A stretch of DNA of 39,828 bases from a virus (taxonomy: Duplodnaviria > Heunggongvirae > Uroviricota > Caudoviricetes), in IMG/VR virus record IMGVR_UViG_3300032038_000006, one strand, 5' to 3'. Position 1 is the first letter of the stretch. Each line of letters begins with the position of its first letter. A program made the translations under genes and the position numbers. Positions 1 to 39,265 of this stretch are shown one piece after another. Under the pieces are notes generated by a model. That model made no database searches. It was given only the letters and a program-made list of their open reading frames with translations, and was not told the DNA's origin.

Positions 1-2
1 CG

Positions 3-2828
3 ACAACATCTTCTTGTGAATTTTATACTACAGATACAACATAGGTAATAACAAGTGGTTTCAGAAATGGAGTTACTCCTTATTAGATAATTACTGATAG
101 TTATATTATAACAAATGTAACAAGCACTACTGTATAGGATTTAACAGACTTTTTAAATAGTGCTACTGGTACTATTACTAAAGCAGACCTTTAGGCAGAA
201 TTTCCTGATATACAGGATTACGCTCTTGGCGGAATGTTAGTATATTCAGTTTATAATGGACAGAATTATTACTATGCTAAAGAGAATATGCTTGCTTTAA
301 CTGGAATTACTTAGTATGACCCAGATAATGTAGTTCCAAATAGCTTCATTAAAACAACAGATAATGTAAACGCAGAATAGGTTTCTTGTTATGACATAAG
401 AACAGTATTAGAGACTGGAAGTGGAGCAATAACATTCGACCCTAACGGATACACTCTATATTCTACTGGTGGAACATATTGGTTAACTAAAGAAGAAACA
501 TCAGAAACAGAAGATGTTACAACAACTGGCGTTTCTACTTCAGATGTAGGTATATTCATTAACAATAAACTTGTAGAATAGACTTCCATTACTGATGAAG
601 ATTTATCTAACATTAGAAATGGTAATTATCAGGAATATGATACCTCATTTGAAGTTGTAACTAATACAGGCGGATATAGTGAGGGCGGCCTTCCTGCAAT
701 TATTAATGCTGCAAAAGAAGTTATTAAGGCGGCACATTCAATAGATAGTTCATTAACTTATTCACACGGTTATAATTATAACATTAATATAAATGGAGTT
801 TCAACACCTTTTAGACCAGACTGCTCTGGTTATATGGAGGCTGTTGTTCACGCTCTTGGTTATGACGTAGGCAACTTCTGGGCCGGCGGCACAGCAAGCC
901 GTGTTGATATATCAAAAAATGGTATAAGCTGCGTAGACGGCACTGGAACTAAAGATTGGTTATTAACATATGATGCAACTTAGGTTAGCAATGCGATAAA
1001 TAATCCTCAAATGGGTGATATATTTATTACTGAAGGACATATGGGTATGTTTGTATACAAAAGTGGTACAAGTCCTCTTGGATTTGACTTCGGTGGAACA
1101 GATAATGCTTAGGCTTCATATGAATTTGCAGTTGCAATTGATAATACTGGTCTTAATTAGGCTATGGCAGACGGAAAAGGATACTGGACAGTTCCGGGTA
1201 GTGGCTATGGAACAGTATGCGGATTACTTCGCTTTATGAAGGGCGGAACATCAGGTGCAACAGTTACTTCTCCATTTACATCAAGTAATTTCTATGTAAT
1301 TGGCGATTCATTAACATATGGTATTAGCACATCTGATATAGCAAATAAGGGTAATTTTAAAGGAATTGTAGGAGCAAATTTCCAAACTCCTCCTTCTTAG
1401 TGGTCAACAGGAAATATTTCATCCGCCACAGAAATTGCTTTTGCTATGGGACGTAATTGCATAACAGATAGTGCTTCTCAATATGCTACTTTTATTCAAA
1501 GCTTTTTATCTGCTAAGAATATGAGTTCAGTGAAAAAAGTATATTTAATTCCAGTTATAAGTCCTGATGATGTTTCTTCTGCGGATGCTTAGCTTATATC
1601 TGCATTTAATAGTAATCTTTCAAGTGTTGATATTAATGGAATAGATGTAATAGCTTGTACTGAATTGGAAAGCCAGTTAACTGGATTACCAGGAGGCGGC
1701 GATGGAATACATCTTAACGCAGAAGGATATAAACAAGCTGGTACAAATATTGTTAATTACTTTACACAAGCATATGGTTCTAATAATACTTCTTCTTATA
1801 CAATAACAAGAAATGTATCTGGTGCAATTAACACAATTCTTAGTGGTTCAGAAAGACTATTTTCAATAGCTCTTGGTGGAGAAAAAGATGGAAAGACTGT
1901 TTATAATAACTTACTTACTATCTTAAAGAATGGTGTCCTTTATATGGGTGGAGAAATCAAAGACTATAATGGTAGAGACTTATCTCTTAAGAGCTTCGAG
2001 TATATGCCAGATGAAATTAGTATTAAAGATGCTCCTATTATTCTTACTAATGATGGTAATGTATGGATGGACTTCAATAGAATATATGCAATAAAGAATG
2101 ATGGTTAGTATACAGGATTAAGCCTTATGGATTGTCTTGTTGGTGCATCAGGTGGAGATATTTCTCAGCCTGGCTCTGAAGGTGGCTCCATTAATAGAAA
2201 TACTAATGTGCCTGAAGAGTTCTATACTGTAGACTTTACTGATGAAAATACTTATCATTTCTTAGGTACAAATGGAGTTCACGATGAGGCTTGGGCTAAA
2301 AAAGCTATGCGTTGTTTAGCTATGGGTGAAGTTGGCGTTCGTGCTGATGATGATAGTGCTCATAGTCTATCTTAGAGCGGATTGCTTATTTATCCTTTCT
2401 TGGTACGTTCAAGATGTCTTGCTTATTATCATACAGTTCCAGCTTCTCAATATCAAGAAAACGGATTATTATATTACACATTTACACACGCTGGATTCTC
2501 CAATAACCATTGGAGCGTTGACCATTCATTACCATCTGGATATACAATTGATGATGATAACTTCTATGGTGCATTAACTCAATGTAATCCTGGTTATGAG
2601 ATGAATGAATTGGCTTCTTCAATAGCTGCCGCAGCGCCTGGCATGAATTATGGTTGGTCTGGATATGGATATAATAATACAGAATCTTCACAAGAAAGTA
2701 TTACAGCAGGATTACAAAATGGAACACTTGTGCCTCGTGGATATGACGGCGGTGCAGTTGCATAGAATAAGGATAATTTAGTTGGCGCATATGGTAATAC
2801 AACATATCACGCAAGTTTAAGTTTATAA
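3..2828 (+). CDS. Large tail-associated/virion protein, 5'-truncated by the window, with NlpC/P60 peptidase, SGNH/GDSL hydrolase and possible SleB-like C-terminal domains (15 in-frame TAG read as Gln)
   Basis: One frame interrupted only by TAG from base 3 to TAA 2826-2828; it joins track ORFs 1164, 1665, 2127 and 2382. Motifs RPDCSGY (813-833) and PQMGDIFITEGHMGMF (about 1005-1052) fit NlpC/P60; VIGDSLT and DGIHLNAEGY fit SGNH. Rich in Thr/Ser/Gly/Asn. Confidence 0.8.
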
Positions 2829-2840
2829 GTAGGTGATTAA

Positions 2841-3218
2841 ATGTTGATAAAAAGAGAAAAGATACCAATGATAAAAAATTTAATAGAGAACCTCAAATTA
2901 AAGAGGTTCTCTATCCAAACTCAATATAAGTTTTTAAAGATTAAAAAAGCTATTGATACTGAACAGGAAATCTATGAAGAATAGCTTAGATTGCTTGATG
3001 ATTATATGGAGAAAGATGCTAATGGAAATGTCGTCGTAAATGAGGACGGCGGCGCAAAGATAAAAGAAGGATGCCTTGAAAAATGTTAGCAGATTGTTTA
3101 TGAATTAAATAAAATGCAAATTCAAGTTCCCGATATTTATCTCTCTCTTGAAGAGCTTGAACCATTAGGATTGACTTTTGATGAGTTAGAGTTATTAGAG
3201 GTCTTTATAAAAATGTAA
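2841..3218 (+). CDS. Hypothetical protein, 125 aa (2 TAG), of the type often found after phage tail genes
   Basis: AGGTGA RBS, ATG 2841, MLIKREKIPMIKNL...LELLEVFIKM, TAA 3216-3218 just before a terminator. Missing from the ORF track. Confidence 0.75.
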
Positions 3219-3221
3219 AAG

Positions 3222-3253
3222 AAAAGAGGTAGGAGAAATCCTACCTCTTTTTT
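3222..3253. terminator. Bidirectional intrinsic terminator between the convergent structural and replication modules
   Basis: AAAAGAGGTAGGA-GAAA-TCCTACCTCTTTTTT: perfect stem with A/T tracts on both sides. Confidence 0.9.
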
Positions 3254-3254
3254 A

Positions 3255-3992
3255 TTAAAATTCAATTATCTCATTTGCTTTCTAATCATGTGCCGCCCAG
3301 CGACCAATTAATATAGCATCTGCTTCATCCTAACTAACGCTAATATCATAAATTGATTTAACTCTTAGCTAAGCACTTTTCTTCTGGTCAGTTCTGTTAT
3401 TACCCTTTACCTGAGAATGATGTCTCCAAGTTGCAGGGGCAGCGATTTTATATAAAATGCCATTTTCATAACAATAGTTTTTAAGGACTCCTTGTAAGTG
3501 AGCGAGCTTTTTAAATGTTGTAACCATTTCAATGACTTCCTATGGGTTCTTCTTATATGTCTATAACTAAATATCCTCAAAGACTACCTTATCGGGCTTC
3601 CATTTAGCAATCATAGAAACTACCCACTATTTTGTCTAAGCTATACGCTCTGTGCTATGTGCGCCATCAGATGTCCAATGTCCATATTTAATCATTTTAT
3701 CTCCGTCATATACAGACCAACCAGATGTAATTGAAGCTTGGTCAAAAGCAAGTATTCTAAAACCTGTTTTCTTAACAGCTATATTATCCGTATGGTAATA
3801 TTTATTCTCCTTACAAATTGGGCATTCATAGGTGCCGCGGCGCCATTTCTCATAGGATACATAGTTCAAGTGTCCTTCAGGACATTTCAACTCTAAATCT
3901 GTTTTTAGATTAACGTAGTCGGTTGACATTAATTGCCAACCGCTACTTTCTATATCCTATTTTATATCTTCATACTTAAGTTTTCCTGCCAC
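3255..3992 (-). CDS. RuvC-like Holliday junction resolvase with N-terminal Zn-binding domain, 245 aa (9 TAG)
   Basis: GTG 3992 to TAA 3255. CPEGH...CPIC; RILAFDQASITSGWS, VVFEDI*L*, S*DEADAILIG are RuvC-fold acidic motifs. The later catalytic motifs lie downstream of several TAGs. Confidence 0.85.
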
Positions 3993-3998
3993 ATGGCA

Positions 3999-4790
3999 TC
4001 ACTTCTTGTCAGTTGAGCCGAAGCCGCCTTCTCCTCTCTCTGTTGAGTCAAGCTCGTCAACTTCAACCCAATCAATCATCGGAACGGCTGAGATTACAAG
4101 CTGTGCAATCTTATCGCCTTTATTAATTGTCTGAGAAAGATTAGCGGTATTTGTCATAATTACACATACCTCACCACGATAATCAGAGTCAATAGTACCA
4201 GGGGCATTAGCAACTCTTAAACCTGTCTTAAGGCTGAGTCCTGAACGAGGACGAACCTGAATCTCATATCCAACAGGAATTGCAACTGAGATACCAGTCT
4301 TAATAAGCTGTGTCTCATGTGGCTTAAGTGTAACATCTTCTATTGCATAGACATCTGCACCAGCATCAGTCTTATGTGCATACTGAGGAATAACAGCATC
4401 CTCACTAAGCTTTTTAATCTGAACCTTAACACGCTCTCTTGGAACCTCGATAAGATTTATGATTGATACGACTGAACCTTCGATAAGAGATGTAAGGAAA
4501 TCTCTCTTTGAACGAGAAAGTGTGTCATCTGCTGCAATCTCATCAATTACTTCAAGTGCTGCGGCCCTCTCTTCCTCGATAGAACCGTGACCTGTAAGCT
4601 TAAAAGCCTTCAATGTATCCTGCTGGAACTCCTCACTTGCGAAAACAAGGTCGAGCTTCTACTGAATACTTGGGTAAAGTGCATCAAACTACTCATCGGG
4701 AAGTTCGAGCAATGAAAGTAATTGGTCAAGTGTGTCATTGGTATCATAAGCGAATAACGCTTCGAGCTTTTCATTTACTTCTTTCTTCAT
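3999..4790 (-). CDS. dut: Trimeric dUTPase with long N-terminal extension, 263 aa (2 TAG)
   Basis: AGADVYA, RPRSGLS, GTIDSDYRGE, IAQL and RGEGGFGST motifs; AGGAGG RBS before ATG 4790. Confidence 0.93.
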
Positions 4791-4803
4791 TTATGTTTCC
4801 TCC

Positions 4804-11866: not shown

Positions 11867-12009
11867 TTTATCTCTACTCCTTTTTTCTTTAATTCTTCAT
11901 ATACAGCTTTAGAAAAAATTTCTTCAATTCTTTTGTCTAATTCATCATACTCAATTTGACCAGACATATAGCTTAGAAATGCTGTCATTAATTCAAGTTT
12001 ATAATCCAT
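11863..12009 (-). CDS. Hypothetical protein, 48 aa
   Basis: MDYKLELMTAFLSYMSGQIEYDELDKRIEEIFSK...; start and stop overlap both neighbours. Confidence 0.6.
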   Translation of the reverse strand: MDYKLELMTAFLSYMSGQIEYDELDKRIEEIFSKAVYEELKKKGVEIK

Positions 12010-14632: not shown

Positions 14633-15703
14633 TTAATTTAGCCAAATCGGGCGTTTCATAATTTCCTCAAACGCGGTCTTGCCTAAATCAGTAGGACTAT
14701 CTTTCGCACCGAGGATATTCTTATAGTCAATAACAAATCCCATTCTACACTTATATACAAATCTTTCACATAACTTCTTCAGTTTATTGTAATGTTTATC
14801 CAGCTCCTCCCAGTTAATAACTGAAGGACTGTCAAAAGCTACGATTACTCTTTCAACACCGAGGTCATATAATAATTGCATTTGATAATATGAAATTGAA
14901 CTACCACATACTGCAACTGCAATATTATTTTCACGTCCGTACATAGTTTCATATTGAAGAACTGATTTCTCAGCTTCAAATATAATTGCCATTTTCTTCT
15001 TTCGGATATTCTCTTTATTCATATTCAAGCCGTAAAGATTATAACCGAGAGGATGAGCATACATTTTTCCCTCTATTGATACCGGCATATATTTACCATA
15101 TACCAAATCTTCATCATTGAGGGCGCGGCCTCTTATACCGATTAACTCATCATTTTCATCGTAATGTGGTATAATTATTTTATTATGAATAACATCATAT
15201 AGAATGTGAAATACTTTCATAGCTTCTTCGCTAATACCGTCATTCAACCACTCTATAGTTGCATAGAAACTGTATATATTTAATAAACTTTTCTTAATAG
15301 GTTTTATTTCAACGATAGTTTCTTGTCTTGTATATCTATCTTCAAGACTTTTATATTTAGAGCCAAACCCATCTTGGAATTGATGAAAGCTGATACCGTC
15401 AACTATTTTTAATACAATATCTTTATAGAAATCGTATTCAATTCCAAGAAGTTCATAACGCTTTTCAAAAAGCTGATAGATGTTAAAATTCTCTCCGCAA
15501 TCTGTATAGCAATGAAACTTATGATTACGCTTATAGTAATACAATTTCATTTTTGCTTCGGAAGCTTCCTCGTTATGACAGATAGTCGGAAAGATTATAT
15601 AATCATTTTTTTCTTCATATCTGTCAGCGCCGAGGCCAGTTACCAGCTCAATGATTCTTTCTGGAGTTAGCTCCTGTTCAACTTTCTTTAAATCAATTCT
15701 CAT
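14633..15703 (-). CDS. dnaG: DNA primase (Zn-binding plus TOPRIM)
   Basis: TICH...CYTDC, IIIPH...GIRGR, FEAEKS, VAFD; lies between helicase and RecJ. Confidence 0.88.
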   Translation of the reverse strand: MRIDLKKVEQELTPERIIELVTGLGADRYEEKNDYIIFPTICHNEEASEAKMKLYYYKRNHKFHCYTDCGENFNIYQLFEKRYELLGIEYDFYKDIVLKIVDGISFHQFQDGFGSKYKSLEDRYTRQETIVEIKPIKKSLLNIYSFYATIEWLNDGISEEAMKVFHILYDVIHNKIIIPHYDENDELIGIRGRALNDEDLVYGKYMPVSIEGKMYAHPLGYNLYGLNMNKENIRKKKMAIIFEAEKSVLQYETMYGRENNIAVAVCGSSISYYQMQLLYDLGVERVIVAFDSPSVINWEELDKHYNKLKKLCERFVYKCRMGFVIDYKNILGAKDSPTDLGKTAFEEIMKRPIWLN

Positions 15704-17394
15704 AATAAATCATCGAAGTCTAAATTCTTCAACCTTTCTTTAGTTTCCTTTACGTCACCAAATGCTTCGGTGATTGAGTCTGTTACTGTCTTTGGCATTT
15801 GTGCTTCAAGATTAGCTAACAACTCATCTGCCATTTCATCTGTTAATACGCCATCGTTATAAAATTCTTCCATTTCCCTTCTCTTATTCATATCAACAGA
15901 TACAAAATTAACGATTTGGAAATCTTGAATAGGCTTATAGTCCGGAGTTGTTACAAACAAATCAACTGTTCTTAATGTTCCCAAATCTACAGCTGACCAA
16001 ATACTTATCATAGTCCAACGTCCACGACGATTCTTAAACACGTCTGTAATAGCATTTGGCTTGAAGTTATAACGTTTTTCAAAATCAGCAACAAGCTGGA
16101 GTTCTTCTGGACTTGGTCGTCTACGTATCGCGGCAAAGTCAGCAAGGTCGGCAATCGCCTTAGAACCTCGAATGTTTCTAAAGTCTTTAAATCCTCCCTT
16201 TGGGTCATCGTCTCCACTTAACTGCGTAGCTGACATTATGAAAGCATCCAGCTCAACAGCTAAATTCTTAATTGCTGTTGTTAAGAGTCTTAAACATACA
16301 TCTTCTCTTAACTTTAAATCCCTATACTCATTGAGCATTGCAGGAGAAGAGAAGATATAGTCATAAAAGAAGTTCTCTACGTTATACTGTAAACTATATC
16401 TTCTGAACAGATTCTTGATAACTGAAGCACAAGGGTCTGGAATACGAGCAAATAGCATATAGTCCTTATAACGTTCCATAATATCTATTGCCTTCATAAT
16501 TCTATCCATATGCTCTTCTTTATAAGTACCATACAAGAACATATCTTCATTATATCCTGTAAGATACGCAAGAATCATTGTTTGAATTTCTGCTGGGTCT
16601 TGCTCTGTCATTACATACAAAACCTTCTCTGGCTCACCAGTATAAACCCATTTCTGATACTTAGTATCATATCTGACTGGATAAGCTATTTGACAAGCAT
16701 CGCCAACCATAGAACGAGTTTTACCAACACCAGAACCTGCTGAACGAAGATATAACTTTCCTTTTCTGCCACCGCGGCACACAGTATTGAATATTTCTCC
16801 CTGAAGATGGACACCAATTTCAGGAGTCTCTTTAAGGTTCTTAATCAATTCTCTAATACCTGTGGCGGCATTACTTTCTTCAACAACGCTATTAATAACA
16901 TATTTATTTTCCAAATCTGCGAGTTCTCCTCGAAGACTATTAAATATGTCAGTAGCGGTCATTTTTTCAAAACGTTCATTGATTTCTGCATATTTCTCAT
17001 TCAACGGGTCTTCACAATAGAATGGAGAAATATCTCTGCCGTTCTTCTATAAATCTCTAAGAAGATTTATCTTTTTGAGTTTATTGTAATAAAGCTGAAA
17101 GTTTGCGGGGTCTGCTAAATCTTCACAATCTTGAATAAAAGCTAATCCGTTATTCTTTTCGAGAAGATTTTTCGCAACCTCATTTGTCTATAAATAAGTA
17201 TCAACGTCTATCGTATGTATTCTTTCTGCGCCGCCCGCAAACAAATTATAGATTGCTGAAAATATCATTTTATCAAGTTGCTGACTAAAATCTGTCGGCT
17301 CAAGCTGATATTTATCGACATCACTTAAAAGCTCAGGGCGGCACATCAAACTGCCGAGAATTTGAATAATTGTTCTTCTGTCAACCTAAATCAC
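15700..17394 (-). CDS. dnaB: DnaB-like replicative helicase, 564 aa (TAG at codons 3, 69, 116)
   Basis: SAGSGVGKT, MTEQ, FFYDY, SATQL, RGSKAIAD, KNRRG; GTG 17394 after GGAG. Confidence 0.88.
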
Positions 17395-22003: not shown

Positions 22004-22418
22004 CATTTTGAGTTTCTCCTTCCATCAAAACGTCAATTGTCGCCTTGATTTGGGCAAGCGCTTTCTGACTTTCTTCAACTCTCTTTTGGATTACTATTCC
22101 TGCGAAAGTAAAAGCAAGTCCTATTCTTGCGATTTCAGTGAGGGACAAATTAAAGTCGTCAGACAATAACTTTCCTCTAACATTTTCATACGCACTTGCA
22201 TCAGAGTTTAATTCCTTTACAAATCCTTCAATTTTTTCATCGGGTTCAAGTCCTTCTTTAAGAACACGAACTACCTTTTTTTCACCATTTACTTCCTATA
22301 TCTGGTTATCGAAGAATCTGTCAGTCATATTATATATAGAATCAAGGTAGAGGTTGAGTGCCTCAATGGCACTCTCCTTCTCCGCCTTTATCTTTTCGAT
22401 TTTAGTTTCGATACTCAT
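21981..22418 (-). CDS. Hypothetical protein, 145 aa (1 TAG)
   Basis: ATG 22418 is in frame with track ORF 21981-22166 across one TAG. Confidence 0.7.
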
Positions 22419-24805
22419 TCCTATCCCCTCACTAAATCTGAAGCTATGTCGCCTTCATCAATGTTTATGGCTTTTACACCAGTAGCATTACGAGTGAGCT
22501 CTCTTAACTCAGAAGTTGATATTTTTATGTTCTTTCGTTTTACTATAATTATTATATCACTTTCTTCGTTTAAAGTCAAGAATTTGACTATTTTATCTCC
22601 GTCTCTTGTGTCAGAAATCTTCTTACCCTTGATAGGGCGGCCACAAACTGGGAACTCGCTCATAGAAGCTTTCTTAATCAAGCCACGTTCAGAAAGTGTA
22701 ATCATATACTTATCCTTTTCGTCGATTATTTTTGCGTCAATTACATAGTCATCGTCATTAAGCTTAATAGCCTTAACACCTGCTGTTGCTCTTCCTATTG
22801 CATTTATATCTTCTGTATTTATTTTAACAAAATTTCCATTATTTGTCAAGATTCCGACTTGTTCGTTCTTCATAAAGAGAACATTGACAACTTCATCGCC
22901 GTCTTTAAGATTGATTGCCTTAAGAGCCTTGCCTCTCTTAAAGTTATACTCCTCGCCCGCAGTTTTCTTAATCATACCGTTCTTAGTTACGAAGACGTAA
23001 TATTCAATACCATGTCTACGATTTACTGAGGTAATAGTTGTAGGCTTTTCATCAGGTTTGAAGTCAAATAACTGTGCTACATTTACTTTAGAATTGATAG
23101 GTAAATCATCAATAGATAAAGCATATGCCTGACCGAGATTAGAGAATATCATTAATGAGCTAAAGTTGTCATCATTAATGGTCTTGACAATCGCTTCATT
23201 ATCTGCCATTTTAATCTTAGAACCCTTGCCACCGCGGCGCGTTTTCATAAGAGTAGAACTTTCTACGGTATAAATGTTGCCAAGATTAGTATAGTATATA
23301 AGAAGTTCCTTCTTTTCAATAGGTTCTGCATCTTCCTTATCCTCATCACAATCGAGGTTAAGAACAGTAGTTCTACGAGGGTCTCCCCACTTCTTATCAA
23401 TTCTATCGAGTTCTGCAATAAAAGCTGCCTTGAAAGTAGCTTCATCATTTACAAGCGTATCGAGACCTTCAGCTTCTACTCTTAACTTTTCAAGTTCCTT
23501 TTCAATCTTAATATGTTCCAACTTCATTAAGCTTCTGAGTTTAAGTTCAATGATAGCCTTAGATTGCTCTTCATTAAGACCATACTTCTCTTCAAAAGTT
23601 TTTATGAGTGTGGCCTCAGATTCTGCTGACTTAATGAGTTGAACTACCTCATCAATATTAGCAATAGCGATAAGATAACCTTCCTTAATGTTTATCGCTT
23701 TCTTAACCTTGTTATAATCAAAGATATAAGAATGCTTTAAACAGCCCATAGCATGGTCAAGATATGCCAACATCATTTCCTTTAAGCCATACTGCTTTGG
23801 CTTTATACCATTTTCAAGCATAAGCTGACAAATAGTAAATGAAGACTGGAGAGATGTTTCCTTATAAAGCTGACGAACTAACTGCTTAACATTAGTTCCC
23901 TTATTTAAGGTAATTACAATCTTAGTACCATACTTACCGCAAGATTTATCGGTGCCATCATAGAAGCTCTTGATACCAAGTAACTTGCCTTCAGCTATTG
24001 CTTCTTCAATTTGCTTTGTAATTCTTCCAGTATAAACTTGATAAGGTACTTGCTGAATTTCAAGTTCGTTCTTTGTTTCATCATATTCAATAACCGCTCT
24101 TAACTTTACTGCCTTGCCGCGGCCTGTACGTAGTGATTCTTTTACTGCTTCACCATTTATAATTGTAGCTCCAGTAGGAAAGTCTGGTGCAATATAAATC
24201 TCATCATAATCTGCATCTCTGTTATTAACCAATATCTTCAAAGAGTTAATAGCCTCAGAAAGATTAAAACAAGGAATACTACTTGCACAACCAACACCAA
24301 TACCGGTATTACCATTTACGAAGTTAGGGAATAAAGTTGGTAATACAGAGGGGTATTTATCTTCACCAGAATAGTTAAGCTTCCATTCAAGAACACTATC
24401 CTTTTTAATGAGCTTTGTAAATTCATTTGCAATTTCTGAACTACGAAGTTCAAGATAACGTGGCGCCGCATGGTCCTTACCAGCTCTCATAGAGCCTACA
24501 TTTCCCTTTGGGTCTTCAAGACAATATCTCATAGAGAATGGTTTCGCAAATCTTACAATATTGTCCCAAATACCAGCGTCACCATGAGGATTCCAGTGCA
24601 TTACTGGTCCATAGATGTATGTACCTTTCTTTCTATTTTTATCAAAAGTGTTCTTTTCAAGATACTGTGACCAAAGAATATATCTACCACCAGTCTTTAA
24701 ACAGTCACGAGCATCAGGTAATGCTCTTGTCTGAATAACATAAGCGCTGAAAGGAAGATAAGCTTCTGGTACAGCGTCTCTGATTTCTTTAGAAATTATC
24801 TTCAT
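22415..24805 (-). CDS. gyrA: Type IIA topoisomerase subunit A (GyrA-like, with beta-pinwheel CTD)
   Basis: RALPDARD, PHGD, AAPRY (catalytic Tyr), PDFPTG, GyrA-box-like TRRGGKG, CTD repeats. TAG 22421-22423 is followed by GAA TGA, which overlaps the next ATG. Confidence 0.92.
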
Positions 24806-24824
24806 TTTCTCACTCCTTTTCTAT

Positions 24825-24879
24825 ATTATAACATACTTTATTTAAAAAATCAAATAAAGGAGAAGTTATCTTCTCCCTT
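24825..24879 (-). promoter_or_regulatory. Terminator-like hairpin plus SigA-type promoter between gyrB and gyrA
   Basis: GGAGAAG...CTTCTCC hairpin (about 24857-24879), then TTGATT-N17-TATAAT. Confidence 0.7.
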
Positions 24880-26743
24880 ATTCTCCATCAACCATAGAAA
24901 AATCAACATGGCTGAAAATGTAATCTGTACGCTCTTCATTCTCCTTACCAAGAAGAACGTTAAGGATGCGAGCTGCCTCCTCAGCATCTTCAATAGTAAA
25001 CTGAAGAAGTCTTGCATTTTCACCATAAGCTGCAAGTGCGAATACATCAGGGTCCATTTCACCAAGTCCTTTATTACGAGTATATGCTGCACCAGGATGC
25101 TTTGCTACTATTTGTTCGAGCTCTTCATCATCATATGCAAACACTAACTCTTTACCAATAGTGACTTCGTAAAGTGGGAACTGTGCCCAATATAACTTAC
25201 CTGCCTGTATAACTTCTGGCATAAGTACGTAGAATAATACAAGGAGCAAGCATACAATATCGAAACCGTCGGGGTCAGCATCTGCTGCAATAGCGACTTT
25301 ACCATAACGAAGTTTCTTTAGATTTACCTTATCCAAGATTCCACAACCAAGAGCCTTAGCTATATCTTGAACCTCTTGATTTTCAAGTACCTCATCAAGT
25401 GCATTTTTCAATGCATTAATAACCTTACCACGAACTGGTATCGCGGCAACATATTCACTGTCACGAGAATTTGTGAAAGAACCAAGCGCAGAATCACCCT
25501 CACAGATGTAGATGATTGAATTTTCATTGTGATTTCTACAATCAAGAAGCTTATCAACCATTACCGATTTCTTCTTAGTTTCTTTCTCAATTTCCTTGCC
25601 AGCATTAAGAACCTTCTGACGCTCTCTTTCAGCGGCGCGGTCTGCTTTATCAAGTTTGGTCAAAAGCTCTACAACCTTATTGAAGTCATCTGGACGGGCC
25701 ATTTGGAACTCCTTAAGACAAGCAGATATAGCTGCTGATGTTGCAGTACCAGCTTCAGGGTTTTCAAGTGAGTCCTTCTGCTGGTTGGACCACTGACCAA
25801 CTTTAACCTTAACAGAGATAAAGCCGTCAAGAAGATTTCTTATCTGCTCACCTTCAAACTTAGTCTTTGCGAGTGAATTAAAGGTTCTTGTAAGAGAAGA
25901 CTTAAACATACTCATAAATTTACCGCCGTTCGGCACATAAAGTGAGTTTGCATATCCTCTTAAATTACCCTTCTTTGAAACCCACTGTAAAGCAAATTCA
26001 ACTTTACAATCGGGTGTCTCATAGTAATATGAGAATGGACGAGATAAAGCATTATTATTGCTAAGTCCATCAATAAGACCGTTCTTAGAATAGAACTTCT
26101 TTTCAACGCCGTCAACAATAAGAATGAAAGTTAATCCCTTTGAGAACAAGCTCATATTAGTGAGCATTGCTTCAAACGCAGGAATATCAATGAATACATC
26201 TCCATATACTCTTGCATCAGGCTTATATGTAATAATAGTACCAGTATCTTTTGCCTTACCAACAATCTGAACGTCACTTAAAGGATGAGCTCCTTCTGCG
26301 TCAGACTCGTATCTCTGCTTGTAAATATTGCCGTCTCTATGAACTTCAACTTCAAGCCACTCGGCAGTATGGCAGACAATCTTATTACCTTCACCATTGA
26401 TACCAACGGCAGAAGAATAAGCTCCTTCCATATGCTTACCGCCGCTGTGAGGGATAAGAAATGCCGCAGTAAGAGAGTTGATACCGTCGTCACGCTTACC
26501 GACAGGAATACCTCTCGCATTATCTTCACAAGTTATAACTCTTGCGATTGTATCAATAGTTACTTTACAGTATGGATTTACAGGCTGATATACTTCGTAT
26601 TCATCTTGTACGTTTACTACCAACTCTCTTAAACCAAGGTTAATAGCTTTCTGCATATCACCGCAAAGATACATACCAATCTTATCTCTAAACGCTCTAC
26701 CAGCACTTAGAGAGACTATATCTTTTACGCCATAATCACTCAT
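24878..26743 (-). CDS. gyrB: Type IIA topoisomerase subunit B (GyrB/ParE-like)
   Basis: ELVVNVQDE, DNARGIP, HSGGK, EGDSA, PVRGK, DADPDG, KGLGEM. Confidence 0.93.
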   Translation of the reverse strand: MSDYGVKDIVSLSAGRAFRDKIGMYLCGDMQKAINLGLRELVVNVQDEYEVYQPVNPYCKVTIDTIARVITCEDNARGIPVGKRDDGINSLTAAFLIPHSGGKHMEGAYSSAVGINGEGNKIVCHTAEWLEVEVHRDGNIYKQRYESDAEGAHPLSDVQIVGKAKDTGTIITYKPDARVYGDVFIDIPAFEAMLTNMSLFSKGLTFILIVDGVEKKFYSKNGLIDGLSNNNALSRPFSYYYETPDCKVEFALQWVSKKGNLRGYANSLYVPNGGKFMSMFKSSLTRTFNSLAKTKFEGEQIRNLLDGFISVKVKVGQWSNQQKDSLENPEAGTATSAAISACLKEFQMARPDDFNKVVELLTKLDKADRAAERERQKVLNAGKEIEKETKKKSVMVDKLLDCRNHNENSIIYICEGDSALGSFTNSRDSEYVAAIPVRGKVINALKNALDEVLENQEVQDIAKALGCGILDKVNLKKLRYGKVAIAADADPDGFDIVCLLLVLFYVLMPEVIQAGKLYWAQFPLYEVTIGKELVFAYDDEELEQIVAKHPGAAYTRNKGLGEMDPDVFALAAYGENARLLQFTIEDAEEAARILNVLLGKENEERTDYIFSHVDFSMVDGE

Positions 26744-27403: not shown

Positions 27404-27514
27404 TCACTCATCTTTATCTTGCCAGGGCTTTTTATTCTCTCCAGAAAAATCATCACGACAACAAAGTCCAAATCCAAAACCAATTATAAAAATAGCACAT
27501 CCTACCCAAAACAT
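27404..27514 (-). CDS. Small membrane peptide, 36 aa
   Basis: MFWVGCAIFIIGFGFGLCCRDD...; GGAGG RBS; TAATG coupling. Confidence 0.55.
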   Translation of the reverse strand: MFWVGCAIFIIGFGFGLCCRDDFSGENKKPWQDKDE

Positions 27515-27738
27515 TATTCTTCCTCCTTAATGTAAAGTCCGCAATGACAAGTGTCGCCACATTTTACATTCTCACGGAAATCTTTACAAGGACATACATA
27601 GTCCTAATCATTCTGTGTGTTGTATTTAAAGTTAGGTACACAAGGACAATAGAACTTACCATACAACTCTTTATTTTTCTTGAGGGCGGCACGAATTTCA
27701 CCAACAAGAACTATATCATCATTAACTTTCATTTTCAT
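27514..27738 (-). CDS. Ferredoxin-thioredoxin reductase catalytic-subunit-like protein, 74 aa (1 TAG)
   Basis: YCPC...*DYVCPC...TCHCGLY: the CPC/CPC/CHC signature. Missing from the ORF track. Confidence 0.85.
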
Positions 27739-30735: not shown

Positions 30736-30979
30736 TAGACTGCTCACCTACCCATTTTATTGCTGAAGGAAATTGCATATAAGTTACTTGGAATCCGACA
30801 TCAGGAAGTCTTTCCAAAACTGAAAGTATTGGAACCGTATCTGTTTCTGCCATTTCACAAGCCTTTTGAATCTCGTCCATATCTGTAACAACCGCATACT
30901 CAATGCCCGCGGCGTCAAGTTTCTTTTTAAGCACATTACACTTTGGACAACCAGTAGAATAAAGTGTTATATTAGCCAT
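30725..30979 (-). CDS. nrdH: Glutaredoxin/NrdH-like redoxin
   Basis: LYSTGCPKCNVLKKKL, TVPIL. Confidence 0.8.
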   Translation of the reverse strand: MANITLYSTGCPKCNVLKKKLDAAGIEYAVVTDMDEIQKACEMAETDTVPILSVLERLPDVGFQVTYMQFPSAIKWVGEQSNAD

Positions 30980-32934: not shown

Positions 32935-33705
32935 TTATGTATTTAATTGCGGTTTTTCCTATAGAAAATTAATCTTGTCTTGTAAATAGTCGGTATCAAT
33001 TTTAGAATAATCTGAATAAGGTATTTCAATTAATAATATATTGTTATTTTTACAATATTCTTTTTTCTTATTATCATATTCCTATTGTTTTTTAAATCTT
33101 TCTTCTCCTCCAAATACGTCTATTGGATAAAAATGCTATTGTCCTTGACATTCAATTACAGCTATGATTTTATTGTCTTGTTTAATAGCAAAATCAAATC
33201 TCAATTGAAGACTATCTCCATAAAGGTCTTTAAAAGAATATTGTTTTAAGAAATTTATATTTAATTCTTTTAAGACTTTTTCTGTGTTTATTTCTCCTAA
33301 AGATTGATTCTTACACCCACATGAAGTCGTGCCGCCTGATAATAAATTATTGCGATAAACTGTTGTTATTTTCTTACATACACATTGACATTTATATAAA
33401 TTAGTAAAATTTTCTTCTTCGAATATTGGCTCTATTACTTTTAGAAAACCATAAGTTTTTCCCGATAAATCATTGAATCTGTTGTGATTATATTCAATAA
33501 TTCTTTTGGTTTTCTAACAGCCACAATTAGTAACTCTTCCTCTTTTTAAATCAGAGCCGCAAATAGATTTTATCGTATGTTCCTTACAACCTTGACACTC
33601 ACAAAACCAATAAGCATTTCTTGATTTTGTTCCATTTTTATTAGGGTCTTCATATAAGACTTTCATAAAACCAAAAGTTTTCCCTGATAAATTATCTTTT
33701 GCCAT
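32935..33705 (-). CDS. Free-standing homing-endonuclease-like protein: two Cys-rich DNA-binding repeats plus PD-(D/E)xK domain, 256 aa (4 TAG)
   Basis: LSGKTFG...CECQ...NCGC and LSGKTYG...CQC...SCGC repeats; SLGE, LRFDF, IECQGQ*HF, IEIPY. Confidence 0.78.
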
Positions 33706-33805
33706 TTTAATCACCTCATTTGATTATCTCATTGTAAAAAATAATAGAAGGGCGGCACAATGAGGATGCCTATCATAGGTTAATTACTCCTATTACCCTT
33801 CTATT
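33706..33805 (-). ncRNA. Candidate structured cis-regulatory RNA leader
   Basis: A 10-bp outer stem (33743-33752 with 33796-33805) encloses two hairpins; one loop is complementary to the RBS region of the downstream endonuclease gene. Confidence 0.5.
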
Positions 33806-33828
33806 TATAAGTATTTTATTTTAGCTAT

Positions 33829-34965
33829 TTATCCTGTAATTTGAGAAAACTCACAATCTTTATAATTTTTATCTGGTCTTGGGCCTACAAATTTACCGTG
33901 CCTTAAAGAATAACCTGATTCCGTGTGCTCGATTTCCATACAAGTTATTTCAAAAACATTACCGATATACTTATCAGGAGTTTTGATAATGCCCTCCTTC
34001 ATTTCATCTGTAATACCGCTTATCCAGCCAATGTGAAATGGCTTACCGTCTCTCATAACAGAAATTGATACAGCAGAAGCCCAACCATAGTAATATGGTT
34101 TTGTAACAGGAACCCAAGGAAGTCCATCATTGTAGTCCTTGAAACGATTAATATTAGACTTTTCCATAGTCTTTTCGTTTTCCCAGTAGGGCCAAGTCAT
34201 TATTTCCTTACCATTATAAAGACGAGTTGGCTGCTTGTAATTTCCGTCAAGGAAAGCGTCAATAGTCTGCTCAATTTCCATTTTAACCTTTAATGTCTTA
34301 CGAGCAGTACGCTTACCTGGCGCCGCCTTAGCAGTTTTCTGAGTAATTACTACTCCTTCGCCGCCTTCATTAAGAATTTTGCCAAGCTCATCCCAGAGCT
34401 CTTGTCCTTCATAGTAATGAGCATCTTCTACATAATCTTCATCCTTAAAGAGGTCAAGTATTTCATAATCAAGATATTGTTCAATTCTTGTTTGGAATGG
34501 AGTATCAAGAAGAGACTTACCGTTATATGCCCATATATCAAATACATAGTAATGAAGCTTTTCGCCCTTTTCCTGACGCTCAAGAGCTTTATCCTTTAAA
34601 CAGCCAAGAATTGTAGTAACCTTACGGGAGCCGCGCTGTGTAGGGAAATAAAGTTCTCCAAGAAGAACTGTGCCGTTAGGAAGACTGTCGAAGAAAGACT
34701 GGCATTGAGGAACCCATTCTATCTTATTAAGATAGCCGCCATTTACGCTCTCGCTTCTTCCTTGTAATCTCATATTGCCGTCCATATCTTTAATGAAACG
34801 AGCATAATGTCCGTCCTTTTTCTCTGCACCAATATAATTACCAGACATAATCATATTTTTGGTGTCTGCTTGCTTATCGCCCTTATATGTCTTGGGGAAA
34901 GACCAATACTTCTCTGCGGGTTCATTGACGAAGTCTATTCCGTCTATAATACCATATTCACTCAT
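33829..34965 (-). CDS. ATP-dependent DNA ligase
   Basis: EKKDG (motif I), GEL, YVFDI, EGVV, LKVK, LRH...RPDK. Confidence 0.88.
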   Translation of the reverse strand: MSEYGIIDGIDFVNEPAEKYWSFPKTYKGDKQADTKNMIMSGNYIGAEKKDGHYARFIKDMDGNMRLQGRSESVNGGYLNKIEWVPQCQSFFDSLPNGTVLLGELYFPTQRGSRKVTTILGCLKDKALERQEKGEKLHYYVFDIWAYNGKSLLDTPFQTRIEQYLDYEILDLFKDEDYVEDAHYYEGQELWDELGKILNEGGEGVVITQKTAKAAPGKRTARKTLKVKMEIEQTIDAFLDGNYKQPTRLYNGKEIMTWPYWENEKTMEKSNINRFKDYNDGLPWVPVTKPYYYGWASAVSISVMRDGKPFHIGWISGITDEMKEGIIKTPDKYIGNVFEITCMEIEHTESGYSLRHGKFVGPRPDKNYKDCEFSQITG

Positions 34966-34997
34966 TTGATTTTCCTCCTTATTTCATTTATATTATA

Positions 34998-35043
34998 ATT
35001 ATAACACAAATAAAAAGAAAAGTCAAGATTTTACTCTTGACTT
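34998..35043 (-). promoter_or_regulatory. SigA-type promoter with a palindrome over the -35 box
   Basis: TTGACT-N17-TATAAT; AAGTCAAGA-TTTTAC-TCTTGACTT at 35020-35043. Confidence 0.85.
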
Positions 35044-35338
35044 AATCTTCATATTTAATTAATGGATAACGATATTTTGCTTTTAAATGTCTCCACCAAG
35101 AATAATTACCATTCTTTTCTTTAAGCACAACTCCGTCAAATACACTTGATGTTATCTTTTTGAAGTTAGGGCCGTATGCCTGAACAATGAATAATTTATT
35201 AGTAGCTATTAAATCAATATGTTTTACGCCTTCTTTTTCAGCAGGAAAGTAATTAACAAAGATTGTAGCTTCATATCTCTTTGAACCTTCTGGGTCACTT
35301 GACTCTGGCAATAAATCGGGATGAAACATATTACCCAT
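35042..35338 (-). CDS. Hypothetical protein, 98 aa
   Basis: GGAGG RBS; overlaps the RNase H stop. Confidence 0.65.
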   Translation of the reverse strand: MGNMFHPDLLPESSDPEGSKRYEATIFVNYFPAEKEGVKHIDLIATNKLFIVQAYGPNFKKITSSVFDGVVLKEKNGNYSWWRHLKAKYRYPLIKYED

Positions 35339-35837
35339 TGGCTATCTCCTCCTTTGCGGCAACAGCTAATTTATCTGCTTCATTATTCCAGTAAACGTCA
35401 TCGTGTCCTTTTACCTTAATGAAATTAACAGAATTAAATGAACCTTCGCCTGCAACTTGATTCATCTTATCCCATATCTGCTGAATAAGGATAAGATTTT
35501 CGATTGGCTTTTTATCTGTCTTCTTCCAGCCTCTTGCTATCCAACCCTTTATCCATTGAGTAAAGATATTTATGCAATAGGCGCTGTCAGAATAGATATT
35601 AACTGTACATGGGCCTTTCTCAAAACGAGTTTCATATTCAGCAAGATTTAGAGCGTTCCATATAGCCATTAACTCCATACGATTGTTTGTGGTTTCCTTC
35701 TCGCCGCCAGAGAGACGATTATATTCCTTCATATTCTCATCAAGACAAATAACGCCCCAGCCACCAGCTTCACGGACATATTCATTATTGACCTTTCTCA
35801 TTGTTGCGGCGCCATCAGTGTAATAATTTAATATCAT
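35331..35837 (-). CDS. rnhA: Ribonuclease HI
   Basis: YTDGA, TTNNRMEL, YSDSAY, VKGH...NNEADKLA. Confidence 0.92.
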   Translation of the reverse strand: MILNYYTDGAATMRKVNNEYVREAGGWGVICLDENMKEYNRLSGGEKETTNNRMELMAIWNALNLAEYETRFEKGPCTVNIYSDSAYCINIFTQWIKGWIARGWKKTDKKPIENLILIQQIWDKMNQVAGEGSFNSVNFIKVKGHDDVYWNNEADKLAVAAKEEIANG

Positions 35838-35838
35838 A

Positions 35839-36342
35839 TTATTCTCCTTTCGTCATTTTGACGAACTCTTCTGCCGAAGCACGAAGTTCATCGAGCGTTC
35901 CATTATTCTCAATAACGATGTCATAATTATAATTAAAAACGTCATCATCAGCATGATTTCCATAATCTTTCTGACCTCCTCTTTTTACAAGGACTGTAAG
36001 GCAGCTGAACGCTTGCTTTAATCTGTCAATATCATCGGGTTCTCTTGCATCAATAAAGACAATTTCACAACCTTCTTTAATTGCCATATGAGCCATAGCA
36101 CAAGTAGTAAGAAATGGGCTGTCATCCCAAGCTGTAAGAGCATCTTTTAAATTGCTAAGAAAACGTCTGTCCTTATCTTCTTTGGCTCCATTCCAACCGA
36201 GCTTGGCGGCACATTGTTTTGTATAATCAATCATTGAGACGGCGGCTACATCGCCTTCGCAAGCTTCAGCTACAAAATTTTCAAAAGTAGTTTTACCTGA
36301 GCCACCCTATCCATTTACTATAAAAATTTTTATATCAAACAT
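35839..36342 (-). CDS. P-loop nucleotide (dNMP-type) kinase, 167 aa (TAG inside Walker A)
   Basis: IFIVNG*GGSGKTT, LGWNGAKEDKDRRFLS, FIDAREP, IENNGTLDEL. Confidence 0.8.
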
Positions 36343-37276
36343 TTTCTTCCTCCTTTATACTATTTTCATTCAATATAGTTATATGACTGCCGAAAAATTC
36401 TTGATAATCTTCAATAGTAATTCCTTTATCAACTTCATTTAAATAGCCATAAGCATTTGAATGACTTTTAATAAAGATAGAATATTGTCTAAGCTGAGTA
36501 ATTATCTTATTGTGTGTCTCATCATCTATATTATCAGGGAATTTGTAAAGCACAATCGAATCTGTTTTCTCAACTTCCCTCAATAATATTGTATTCTTTT
36601 CGAGAGAAGGAGTCAAGAAAAGGACTATTATGTCTTTTTCATAAGGTTCGATAATATTGTCATTAAAGTGGAAACTCATATTTTCCCAAGCATGATTTTC
36701 CATTGAATAACTACATTCACACCAATGCTGAAGATTATTTATAATAGTATCATTTTCAATTATATCATTCTTAATATATCCAAGATGATAAAATAGTCTG
36801 ATTGCCTTTAATTGATATGGAGTAAACTCCTTCATTGGATACCAAGTAACATTAGGGAAATCTCTGAAGATGTCCTTAGAGTCAGTTACTTTATATAGAG
36901 GATTAAAGGGAGAAATATAAATAGCTTTTTCTTGCTTCATTAATTTCTTTAATCGGTAATTGCCGATTCTCTTTACTCCCTTCACAATATCTTTGGTCTT
37001 ACGGCGCTTGCCATATATGACCAAATTAATAGGTGTAGACATAGCAGATATAACTTTTAACATTCTGTAACACATAGCACTTATGATATCGTCGTGATAT
37101 TCTAATACAAAAGTATGAGTTTCTGCATATTTGCCATATTGGTTAAGGAACTCGCTTATTTTTTGTTCTATTCTCATATTTGTTTCGGCTTCATTTCCAT
37201 AGCCGATAGGATAGAACAAATTAAGATTATGATGTTCAAGTTTTGCTTCGAGCAAAGCTTTTGTAATTACATTCAT
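36335..37276 (-). CDS. Hypothetical protein, about 313 aa
   Basis: Long open frame; GAGGTG RBS; first gene after a promoter. Confidence 0.75.
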   Translation of the reverse strand: MNVITKALLEAKLEHHNLNLFYPIGYGNEAETNMRIEQKISEFLNQYGKYAETHTFVLEYHDDIISAMCYRMLKVISAMSTPINLVIYGKRRKTKDIVKGVKRIGNYRLKKLMKQEKAIYISPFNPLYKVTDSKDIFRDFPNVTWYPMKEFTPYQLKAIRLFYHLGYIKNDIIENDTIINNLQHWCECSYSMENHAWENMSFHFNDNIIEPYEKDIIVLFLTPSLEKNTILLREVEKTDSIVLYKFPDNIDDETHNKIITQLRQYSIFIKSHSNAYGYLNEVDKGITIEDYQEFFGSHITILNENSIKEEENV

Positions 37277-37307
37277 TTTCTTCACCTCATTTTTTTATTT
37301 TCATCTA

Positions 37308-37393
37308 AGTATAACATAATTGAGGTAAAAAGTCAACAATTTAATTGTTATTGAAATTGAAATGTTGACTATTGTTGTACAGAATGTTATTAT
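37308..37393. promoter_or_regulatory. Back-to-back divergent SigA-type promoters at the strand switch
   Basis: - strand TTGACT (37336-37331)-N17-TATACT; + strand TTGACT (37365-37370)-N17-TATTAT. Confidence 0.75.
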
Positions 37394-37412
37394 ATTAAAG
37401 GAGGAATTGAGA

Positions 37413-37661
37413 ATGAAACTTCAATATAAATTAAATCGAGATATTGTAGCAAGAACAGCTACTATGTTAAACTGGGATTTAAGTCAACTTCATTCATCAA
37501 TACATATTCAGTCTGGTGAAAGAGTTATTAATGGTAAATCTCTCATTGGTATATTAAGTGCTTAGTATAAAATGGGAGATGTAATAACTATTGTATTTGA
37601 TGATGAGAATGATTTAGATAAAATAAAAGAAATTTTTAACGAATTAGGAGGGGAAATTTAA
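37413..37661 (+). CDS. HPr-like protein, 82 aa (1 TAG); Ser46 motif kept, His15 absent
   Basis: AGGAGG RBS; DIVARTA in place of GLHARPA; VINGKSLIGILS; TAA overlaps the next ATG. Confidence 0.75.
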
Positions 37662-37945
37662 TGGCACAGTATGCTTGTGTTAAAATTACTGCTTAGGCAG
37701 GCGAGAATATTGTTCCTTTACTTTTTAAGGAATTGACTGGAACTGTTCCTCCAGGTCAATAGTGCAAAATTCAGTTTATTGCCTTCGAAGAATCAGCCGG
37801 AGAAGAGCTGACAATTAATGGCGTTCCAAATATTGTTCCATCTACTGGACAATTCATTACCCCTTATGATGGAGCAAACCATATGATGATACATTCAGTT
37901 ACTTTTAAAGCAGGATGTACTAAGAAAATATGGTTCATATATTAA
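37661..37945 (+). CDS. Hypothetical beta-rich protein, 94 aa (2 TAG)
   Basis: GGAGG RBS; TAATG coupling. Missing from the ORF track. Confidence 0.65.
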
Positions 37946-37960
37946 TGGGAGGTGAGATAA

Positions 37961-39265
37961 ATGAGTTTTAATCCTTTCGTTAATGGTGGCGGTGGAACGT
38001 CATCTGAAGACAAAGTTGCAAGAGCTGAGATTGCTGCTATTAAAGACGGAGAAAACCTTGACAGCTTTAGTGATGTTGAAACTGCTCTCAGTGATAAGGT
38101 TGACAAGGAAACAGGCAAGGGACTTTCAACGAATGACTATACAACAGGCGAAAAGACAAAGCTCGCTGGTATTGCCGAGGGTGCGGAAGTCAACGAAATA
38201 GAGGGCATAAAAGTTAATAATACAACTGTAAATCCTGATGTCAATAAGGTTGTAAATATTACCGTTCCTACAACAGCGGTGGACGTATCAGCTCTCCCCA
38301 ACACGACTAAGTATGCGGCAGCTCTTAGCCTTACAATTAACAGTTCGACGTTTGTTATGACAGGTCAACTTAAAGACCAGAATGGAGATAACTTAGGGAC
38401 AACGCAAACAATAGATTTGCCTTTAGAAAGTGTTGTTGTAGATGGCTCTTATGATAATTAGACAAAGAAAGTCGTTCTTACTTTACAAAATGGTAATACA
38501 GTCGAGTTTAGTGTTGCCGACCTTGTTTCTGGTTTATAGACAGAGCTTTCAGAAAGTAATAAGTTGAATCCAGCATATATCAACTATGATAGTACACATA
38601 GAGCAGTTAGCGATGCTGAAAAATCCTCATGGAATGGCAAGCAGAACGCTCTTAGCTCAACACAGCTCTCTGCTGTAGACAGCGGCATTGACAGTCTTAA
38701 GGTAACTCAGATAACTACTAATACAGACAGTATTTCCGAACAAAGGGTGGCGCTGGATGAGGACAGAGCAGCTCTTGTGGAGATTGTGGATTCCGGAGCG
38801 AAGAATTTTTTACAGAACGACGCTACTTCTCAGACTATTTCTGGCGTCACATTTACGGTTAATGCCGATAAAAGCATTACACTTAGTGGCACAGCGAGAG
38901 CCAACATTACATCATTCTTTATCTGTCGAGCAATACCTGCATTAACAGGAAATATGGTTCTTTCAGGTTGTCCAGCAGGTGGTTCATCTGATACATATAG
39001 ACTTGATATACTCGACGGTACTGCTTCTGGTACTGTACGATTCGTAGATACAGGAGAAGGCATGGATGTTGACTGGAGCTTAATCACTACGGGGACATAT
39101 ACGACAAGAATTCGTATTCAGTCAGGAACAACAGTTGATGGATTGATATTTAAACCAATGCTCTGCACTAAAGCAGCATGGGACATTTCACATCAGTACG
39201 TCCCGCATAGGCCAAGCTATGACGAGCTTATAGCACGGATAGAAGCGCTGGAAGGAGGGGTGTAA
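37961..39265 (+). CDS. Tail-fibre/virion accessory-like protein, 434 aa (2 TAG)
   Basis: Track ORFs 37961-38461 and 38564-39265 are in frame. KVDKETGKGLSTNDYTTGEKTKLAGI and SGVTFTVNADKSITLSGTA are typical phage fibre motifs. Confidence 0.72.

Follow-up and report, generated by a model that had tools for sequence, protein, structure and literature searches.

Evidence that TAG is read as glutamine, and is unevenly placed, in the replication arm of a large gut phage

IMG/VR record IMGVR_UViG_3300032038_000006 is a stretch of 39,828 nucleotides from a virus (Caudoviricetes); this whole stretch is hereafter called the window. By the tests run on its sequence, the window comes from a code-15 phage, in which the amber codon TAG stands for glutamine (Gln). 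Its GC content is 36%, and 29 of its 49 curated open reading frames (ORFs) hold 64 in-frame TAG codons, beside 336 CAA/CAG codons. It is highly probable that the window represents the replication arm of a large phage, in which TAG would be translated as Gln by a phage-encoded tRNA with a CUA anticodon, incompletely early in infection and fully late. We lean slightly towards the wider proposal that TAG is time-dependent and ambiguous in meaning, that early genes keep it only where termination is cheap (the 5' end or the extreme 3' end) and late genes have it evenly spread, that this bias fades in heavy TAG users, and that the CUA tRNAs, with their U1-A72 pair, are of repeated origin. The original prediction, which had proposed the recoding from the sequence letters, missed the uneven use of TAG between and within genes as well as a possibly foreign right end.

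Reading of TAG as glutamine

The in-frame TAGs described in the original prediction were confirmed. They were found in the Walker A motif G*GGSGKT of a kinase (at 36309; the asterisk stands for TAG), in a CT*C motif (27022), between the cysteine motifs of an FTR beta-like protein (27606), in the PHP region of DnaE (10448, codon 60) and on each side of the RecJ motif DSDVDG (14468 and 14330, codons 52 and 98). The gene couplings by TAATG or ATGA overlap at 12009, 22415, 27735, 31635 and 37661 were all recovered, and the two paralogous nucleases read as claimed, EYDGIQH against ECQGQ*H and KK*QEWD against KKQ*EYD. The statement that all genes end in TAA or TGA holds as well, but reading TAG as a sense codon makes it so by construction.

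A gain in coding density, proposed as a check of the recoding, was observed: non-overlapping ORFs of at least 100 amino acids (aa) covered 0.66 of the window under table 11 and 0.87 with TAG read, versus 0.69 with TGA read. TGA recoding was rejected, 4 well-aligned TGA sites being counted across all loci. Raw six-frame ORF cover (0.90 vs 0.896 for both strands, 0.73 vs 0.79 for the minus strand) is by itself insufficient to exclude TAA read-through, and the case therefore rests on alignments.

These supported the interpretation of TAG as Gln, and the tally of homologous residues suggested in the original prediction gave the expected outcome. When 19 of the 27 relatives' records were taken whole, Gln was the majority residue at 24 of 42 TAG sites (57%), and the same 57% was reached at 280 CAA/CAG sites. 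A comparison of 77 loci, based on homologs less than 90% identical to the window (558 residues, 30 TAG sites), placed Gln opposite TAG in 39% of cases and opposite CAG and CAA in 45%, versus 3-5% opposite GAG, GAA, AAG and AAA. Summed log-odds at TAG sites reached +79.8 for Gln, with -29.0 for Lys and -31.4 for Glu, and were negative for every residue except Gln. At single sites, Gln was present in 8/8 aligned relatives at codon 48 of the 125-aa protein encoded at 2841..3218, in 11/11, 11/11 and 9/9 relatives at RuvC codons 142, 144 and 208, and in 11/11 at codon 46 of the gene at 20531-21436. It was also the commonest homolog residue at DnaB codons 3, 69 and 116 in the 77-locus comparison; Lys led at codon 3 in that of the 19 whole records.

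Direct codon exchanges were seen in a 95%-identical relative, where 14 gene pairs yielded 12 TAG/TAG, 2 TAG/CAG and 2 CAG/TAG correspondences and 2 other changes. Gln led opposite TAG in each of 17 TAG-using relatives and, taken the other way round, the window presented 163 Gln codons and 38 TAGs among the 338 codons facing relatives' TAGs. Gene calls made with table 11 fragment the polymerase, helicase and resolvase of this lineage: the helicase in nr entry DAD58649.1 is cut down to 420 aa, begins past the third TAG and lacks the first 144 residues.

Uneven use of TAG between and within genes

According to Pfam and PHROGs matches, the minus strand carries a replication and nucleotide-metabolism arm, and plus-strand genes lie at both ends of the window. 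The curated genes and their TAG codons are as follows.

234..2828, plus strand: putative virion- or tail-associated protein of 864 aa; 11 TAG of 26 Gln codons, evenly spread (codons 27-844)
2841..3218, plus strand: conserved hypothetical protein of 125 aa; 2 TAG; phrog_1401
3255..3992, minus strand: RuvC-like Holliday junction resolvase; TAG in 9 of its 14 Gln codons; phrog_159/827
3999..4790, minus strand: dUTPase extended at its N-terminus; TAG codons 34 and 44; PF00692
4804..5538, minus strand: ClpP-like protease; TAG at codon 58; PF00574
6699..10625, minus strand: DNA polymerase III alpha, DnaE-type, 1308 aa; 1 TAG of 38 Gln codons, inside the PHP domain; PF02811 (residues 10-205), PF07733
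12822..14621, minus strand: RecJ-like DHH exonuclease; 2 TAG, as given above; PF01368, PF17768
14633..15703, minus strand: DNA primase; TAG-free; phrog_47
15700..17394, minus strand: DnaB-like helicase; TAG at the three codons given above; PF03796/PF00772
17399..21792, minus strand: block of a helix-turn-helix (HTH) protein (TAG codon 11), PIN-PhoH (none), Sak4-like AAA (none), a 301-aa protein at 20531-21436 (TAG codon 46) and a small HTH protein (TAG codon 31)
22415..26743, minus strand: type II topoisomerase subunits, GyrB-like (TAG-free) and GyrA-like (only TAG at codon 795 of 796); PF00204, PF00521
27514..30979, minus strand: redox and nucleotide block of FTR beta-like protein (1 TAG), putative NrdG-like protein, NrdD (TAG codons 14, 19 and 25, with the ATG at 30735 as codon 1) and glutaredoxin; PF02943, PF13597, PF00462
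31635..33714, minus strand: two paralogous HNH/homing-type nucleases (2 and 4 TAG) around a 282-aa protein (TAG codons 47 and 54); phrog_559/9084
33829..37285, minus strand: ATP-dependent DNA ligase (TAG-free), RNase H (TAG-free), dNMP kinase (TAG in the Walker A motif, 36307-36309) and a 316-aa hypothetical protein; PF01068, PF00075, phrog_139
37413..37945, plus strand: HPr-like protein (1 TAG, PF00381) and a 94-aa protein (2 TAG), with the TAATG coupling at 37661
37961..39265, plus strand: tail-fibre-like protein; its 2 TAGs both fall within the first 228 codons; varies among relatives
39267..39828, plus strand: holin and endolysin start; no TAG, high GC; PF05105, phrog_291

In 11 core replication genes TAG accounted for 9 of the 181 Gln codons, versus 37 of 161 elsewhere in the window, and a lower share in the replication core was found in 16 of 17 TAG-using relatives. 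The codon was common in RuvC, the nucleases and genes of the tail and lysis region. RuvC, which uses amber more heavily than any other replication-arm gene, ends an otherwise TAG-poor run of genes; in relatives, TAG made up 56 of its 196 Gln codons and occurred in 14 of 16 records. Judging from this codon usage, RuvC behaves like a late gene. The lysis genes of relative G001 had TAG at 3 of 8 endolysin and 1 of 1 holin Gln codons. On these counts, TAG is concentrated in the presumed late (structural and lysis) genes, as is looked for in code-15 phages.

The code also varied between relatives. Both codes 11 and 15 were seen among them, and no TGA-recoded member was found in the loci compared. 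G004 (L006, L116-L117), whose DnaE is 88% identical, had no TAG among the 247 Gln codons of the module and no TAG stop among its 28 ORFs. In a tree of six marker genes (midpoint root; deep nodes at 40-57%; G001 and G008 excluded, one marker being missing), G004 was nested between TAG users with 100% support, implying either a loss of TAG or its repeated gain. G021, which follows the standard code, grouped with recoded G011 with 99% support. The genetic code is labile in this lineage, as far as can be read from the tree.

Within genes, TAG was shifted towards the 5' end: over all 49 ORFs its median position was at 0.34 of gene length, versus 0.52 for CAA/CAG (within-gene permutation, p=0.0002). 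With RuvC and one HNH gene set aside, 17 minus-strand genes are at least 200 aa long; in these, 17 of 18 TAGs fell in the first 120 codons, versus 51 of 226 CAA/CAG codons, where 6.9 would be expected within genes. The sole TAG past codon 120 was the penultimate codon of gyrA, which could act as a stop with next to no loss. No 5' bias was displayed by ten TAG-rich genes taken from the window and G001 (16/73 vs 25/137, p=0.58).

The same tendency was found in 29 TAG-using related loci, with 99 TAGs observed against 65.6 expected (p=0.0003) and a TAG share of 15.6% in codons 1-30, about 7% in codons 61-200 and 2.1% beyond codon 500. The near-identical loci L001 and L002 were left out of the relatives' positional counts, as were, for the 29-locus and the light- and heavy-user counts, nine near-duplicate loci and all TAG-free loci; a genome-wide decile table, built on automatic starts, was not relied on. 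In the 24 light TAG users the bias held in all conservation classes, being weakest at conserved columns (p=0.017).

Two trivial causes were rejected. AT-richness of 5' ends was ruled out by 12 control codon pairs, 11 of which lacked a significant 5' bias (AAA/AAG gave an odds ratio of 1.8). Wrong start calls were ruled out as well: the relatives' positions were derived from alignment to window proteins, and the PHP and DHH domains span TAGs. Selection against costly truncation while suppression is incomplete is a likely cause of the bias. Full-text literature searches listed no earlier report of within-gene TAG bias, which is weak evidence of novelty.

Decoding machinery and competing explanations

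Coding cover increased under code 15 in 13 of the 14 records longer than 100 kb, and 8 of these 13 recoded records carried one or two CUA tRNAs each. Such tRNAs were present in 7 of 10 recoded relatives at least 90% complete; in code-15 phages generally, a CUA suppressor tRNA of their own is frequent without being universal. No CUA tRNA was detected in the standard-code G021, where TAG is used as a stop, near gene ends. The CUA tRNA of G006 has a long variable arm. The genes lie as follows.

L122:12884-12960, CUA tRNA
L122:17784-17861, CUA tRNA
L134:19883-19956, CUA tRNA
L139, L149, L179, L189, L192 and L224, further CUA tRNAs

All 11 CUA tRNAs keep U1-A72, and all 14 tRNA-Gln start with U, compared with 32 of 172 other tRNAs. 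U1-A72 is distinguished by bacterial GatCAB, according to the part of Nakamura (PMC2811023) that bears on this pair. Neither an RF-1-family release factor nor a class Ic synthetase (GluRS/GlnRS) was matched in any of the 27 records, and no tRNA gene was found in the window. A bare CTCTAAA pattern search was uninformative, 27 of 27 records being matched, mostly less often than the control.

Taken together with the positional data, these features would fit the following course of events. The suppressor tRNA gene would lie outside the window, and its product would be charged by host enzymes, either GlnRS or GluRS plus GatCAB. The phage-encoded CUA tRNA would then compete with host release factor 1 (RF1), which would still end translation at some of the TAGs in early infection, so that early genes would keep TAG only where the waste is small. 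Error-prone codons are indeed expected to gather at 5' ends, as stated in section 21 of Cope, Pak and Gilchrist (PMC13271495). Selection would remove TAG from early genes except at cheap sites, namely the first ~100 codons and the very end, and late genes, translated under efficient suppression, would have it spread evenly. TAGs in replication genes would be tolerated and would not form a designed gate; DnaE, DnaB, RecJ and NrdD would still need some read-through before DNA replication.

A series of observations weighs against this reading. Another residue than Gln was in the majority at 18 of 42 TAG sites. The suppressor tRNA was seen neither in the window nor in the five closest records (all fragments), and ARAGORN showed no CUA tRNA in the near-complete recoded G007, G011 and G017; no release factor was found in these three either, and a non-canonical tRNA possibly reads TAG there. 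U1 is also frequent in tRNA-Asn (5/8), and the CUA tRNAs are diverse, with no clear grouping with tRNA-Gln by overall sequence. The early and late classes compared were assigned from gene function, and G005 has more TAG inside the core than outside. The 17-gene set and its 120-codon cut-off were chosen after the data had been seen, and adding RuvC and the HNH gene gives 20/31 TAG versus 55/242 CAA/CAG codons in the early part. In relatives the bias was only about twofold (6.1% vs 3.0%; 21 of 27 loci). It was weakest where the Gln column is conserved (8.2% vs 6.7%) and fell short of significance in the five heavy TAG users (p=0.06); in RecJ homologs, many TAGs lie past codon 120 (55/408). Because the loci are related, the p-values overstate independence.

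The 5' TAGs of DnaE, DnaB, RecJ and NrdD could also represent a selected gate, delaying replication until suppressor tRNA has accumulated. Several essential replication genes do hold one to three TAGs each near their start, and some of these sites are shared with relatives, for example DnaB codon 3 in 6 loci and codon 46 of 20531-21436 in 5. We consider such a gate improbable because TAG and CAG are exchanged in both directions at 95% identity and because G004 manages without any TAG in its module. The primase, GyrB, ligase and Sak4-like genes, all TAG-free, argue in the same direction.

Tolerated TAGs under incomplete suppression are also preferred to a host that itself reads TAG as Gln and is simply matched by the phage, with no switch involved. 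TAG in core replication genes, the failure to find a release factor or synthetase in 27 records, and the three near-complete recoded relatives with no detected suppressor would all agree with a recoded host. Such a host is nevertheless very unlikely: the strong depletion of TAG from replication-core genes, together with its 5' bias, implies a cost that it leaves unexplained, relatives bring CUA tRNAs of their own, and standard-code G021 stands beside recoded G011 in the tree. Hosts given for comparable clades in the passages of Borges et al. (bioRxiv 10.1101/2021.08.26.457843) use the standard code.

Slightly less probable still is a meaning of TAG other than Gln, be it Glu, Lys, Leu, Trp or pyrrolysine, or an ambiguous one. 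The CUA tRNAs were called 'Pyl' by ARAGORN, a label that follows from the anticodon, and they fold with ordinary 7-bp acceptor and T arms. In homologs, Gln is followed in frequency by Glu and Lys, but the rates of these two behind Gln are the same opposite CAA/CAG; the log-odds fall below zero for all residues but Gln, and the TAG/CAG swaps are direct. Finally, nonsense mutations of a decayed prophage, or assembly errors, can practically be dismissed: the window is a fragment with a possibly chimeric right end, but its 49 ORFs are free of in-frame TAA/TGA breaks and frameshifts, 12 of 14 aligned TAGs are common to an independent contig, and the same pattern recurs in 13 records longer than 100 kb.

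Phage lineage, gene content and known systems

The right end of the window stood apart. Identity to G001/L108, which is 97% over the HPr-like and 94-aa region, stops at 37995, inside the tail-fibre gene (so named from a relative's gene with the same start, a tail fibre); beyond this point G001/L108 continues with a collagen-like fibre, amidase and holin, with TAGs. Several contigs, including those from run X2 that follow the window to 38644, diverge at 38644-38646. In eight runs no contig spanned 38646 to the holin, and bins 38700-39400 were uncovered, which proves nothing. The segment 38646-39828 (C-terminal half of the tail fibre, holin, endolysin start) is GC-richer and TAG-free and does not resemble the corresponding lysis genes of the 97%-identical relative; the holin (39267-39680) has a third-codon-position GC content of 0.57 versus 0.30 in the rest, and the DNA matches small Lachnospiraceae-type phages at 66-71%. 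The last ~1.2 kb may be foreign, through a module swap or a chimeric assembly; the holin and endolysin start probably stem from another phage and are therefore no evidence for or against the code.

Neither Pfam nor PHROGs assigned a family to the 864-aa protein at 234..2828. It gave short matches in 4 relatives, within the C-terminal portions of proteins ~1900 aa long, and a virion role is inferred for it. The NrdG-like activator, which had no family match, is presumably one from its gene position and cysteine motif. Ferredoxin-thioredoxin reductase (FTR) beta-like (27514-27738) and glutaredoxin (30725-30979) genes flank the NrdD block, which suggests a phage redox module for nucleotide reduction. 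The HNH-type nuclease gene at 32935-33705 is probably mobile because it is missing from the 95%-identical L001 and has a lower GC content (0.28). The plus-strand arm opens with the HPr-like gene (37413-37661); no homolog of it was detected among relatives' ORFs of at least 100 aa, a cut-off that its size would miss. Six helicase homologs (P0059, P0079, P0091, P0096, P0098 and P0109) are 907-927 aa long and include LAGLIDADG-type domains (PF14528), which in some relatives are probably inteins. GATC was absent from the window versus ~100 expected, CTAG occurred 2 times versus 54 and CATG 35 versus 125; the shortage extends to G001 and G004 and likely reflects avoidance of host restriction sites. 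None of the 64 in-frame TAGs directly follows C, because CTAG is avoided.

Helicases 99-100% identical to that of the window were found on contigs up to 189 kb, and IMG/VR relatives with 57-69% helicase identity measure 152-186 kb, many with terminal repeats; relatives overall span 152-193 kb. At least a quarter of the sampled words was present in 18 sequencing runs, 8 of them labelled bovine, and long pieces of the window were matched by contigs from runs X1-X3, so the cattle gut is a likely source. A metagenome scan found 2 contigs; RNA run X20 matched five short pieces, with no bearing on expression. As a weak host hint, 7 of 10 metagenome-assembled genome contigs carrying the helicase were binned to Clostridia. 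No terminase was found within the window, nor by a PF03237 search of 5 relatives. No tyrosine integrase (PF00589) was found in 27 relatives' records and no serine recombinase (PF07508) in 16, for which reason a lytic lifestyle of a large gut phage is likely. Among isolated phages, the best DnaE matches (Enterococcus VRE9/EF1 and SPbeta) reached 38-40% identity and DnaB matches to Enterococcus EF1/VRE9 and SPbeta 33-35%. An SPbeta-like temperate phage was rejected, since neither an integrase nor a serine recombinase was found in these relatives and DnaB and DnaE reach only 33-38% identity.

TAG-to-Gln recoding in gut phages was already known, as acknowledged in the original prediction; the code change itself is established and the window adds one more lineage. 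What specialists may regard as new is where TAG is placed within early genes. If our interpretation is true, TAG position within genes would reveal from sequence alone at what time and to what extent a phage suppresses host RF1, the code switch would begin before DNA replication and not solely at the late stage, and the diverse CUA tRNAs with U1-A72 would point to repeated independent suppressor origins fitted to host Gln charging. Models of code-switch timing are hard to test in uncultured phages; the positional signature could be looked for in the hundreds of genomes that already exist, and it predicts a measurable early read-through efficiency.

The closest known systems are the Agate, Sapphire and Jade clades of Borges et al. 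(bioRxiv 10.1101/2021.08.26.457843), large code-15 gut phages of Firmicutes. From the passages of that work on these clades, they share with the window lineage the alignment of TAG to Gln, genomes of 150-200 kb, occurrence in cattle, a suppressor tRNA that only some genomes encode, TAG mainly in structural and lysis modules, and mixed codes per clade. RF2 is mentioned for two Agate phages, whereas none was found among the records of the window lineage. The crAss and Agate genomes illustrated there have standard-code replication genes, whereas DnaE, DnaB, RecJ and NrdD of the window carry TAG; replication genes elsewhere are described as 'variably' recoded, and in Lak as mostly so. The uneven TAG use of the window fits the late-gene model of these authors, whose passages on it do not treat TAG position within genes.

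Phage phAss-1 (proposed Phassvirus; Babkin et al., PMC10607447), as far as described in the sections concerned, resembles the window lineage in TAG-to-Gln recoding, a DnaE polymerase, EF1/SPbeta-like kinship, a predicted Clostridia host, CUA tRNAs and the absence of a synthetase of its own. It has 136 kb and 44.5% GC, versus 36% GC in the window and relatives of 150-190 kb. Its DnaE is only 40% identical to that of the window and DnaB gave no match, on which grounds membership in Phassvirus was rejected. The crAss-like phages in the cited part of Peters et al. (PMC9523058) likewise use TAG as Gln in structural proteins, but they form a separate lineage in which code 15 was proven by proteomics, unlike the sequence-based case made here; few early proteins were detected in that work, and recoding was found in none of them. 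A parallel of another kind comes from yeast, where termination-prone sense codons, like TAG in the window, are enriched at 5' ends (PMC13271495, in the part dealing with this enrichment). In yeast, ordinary sense codons with small effects are concerned, whereas in the phage of the window it is a reassigned stop codon with a large effect.

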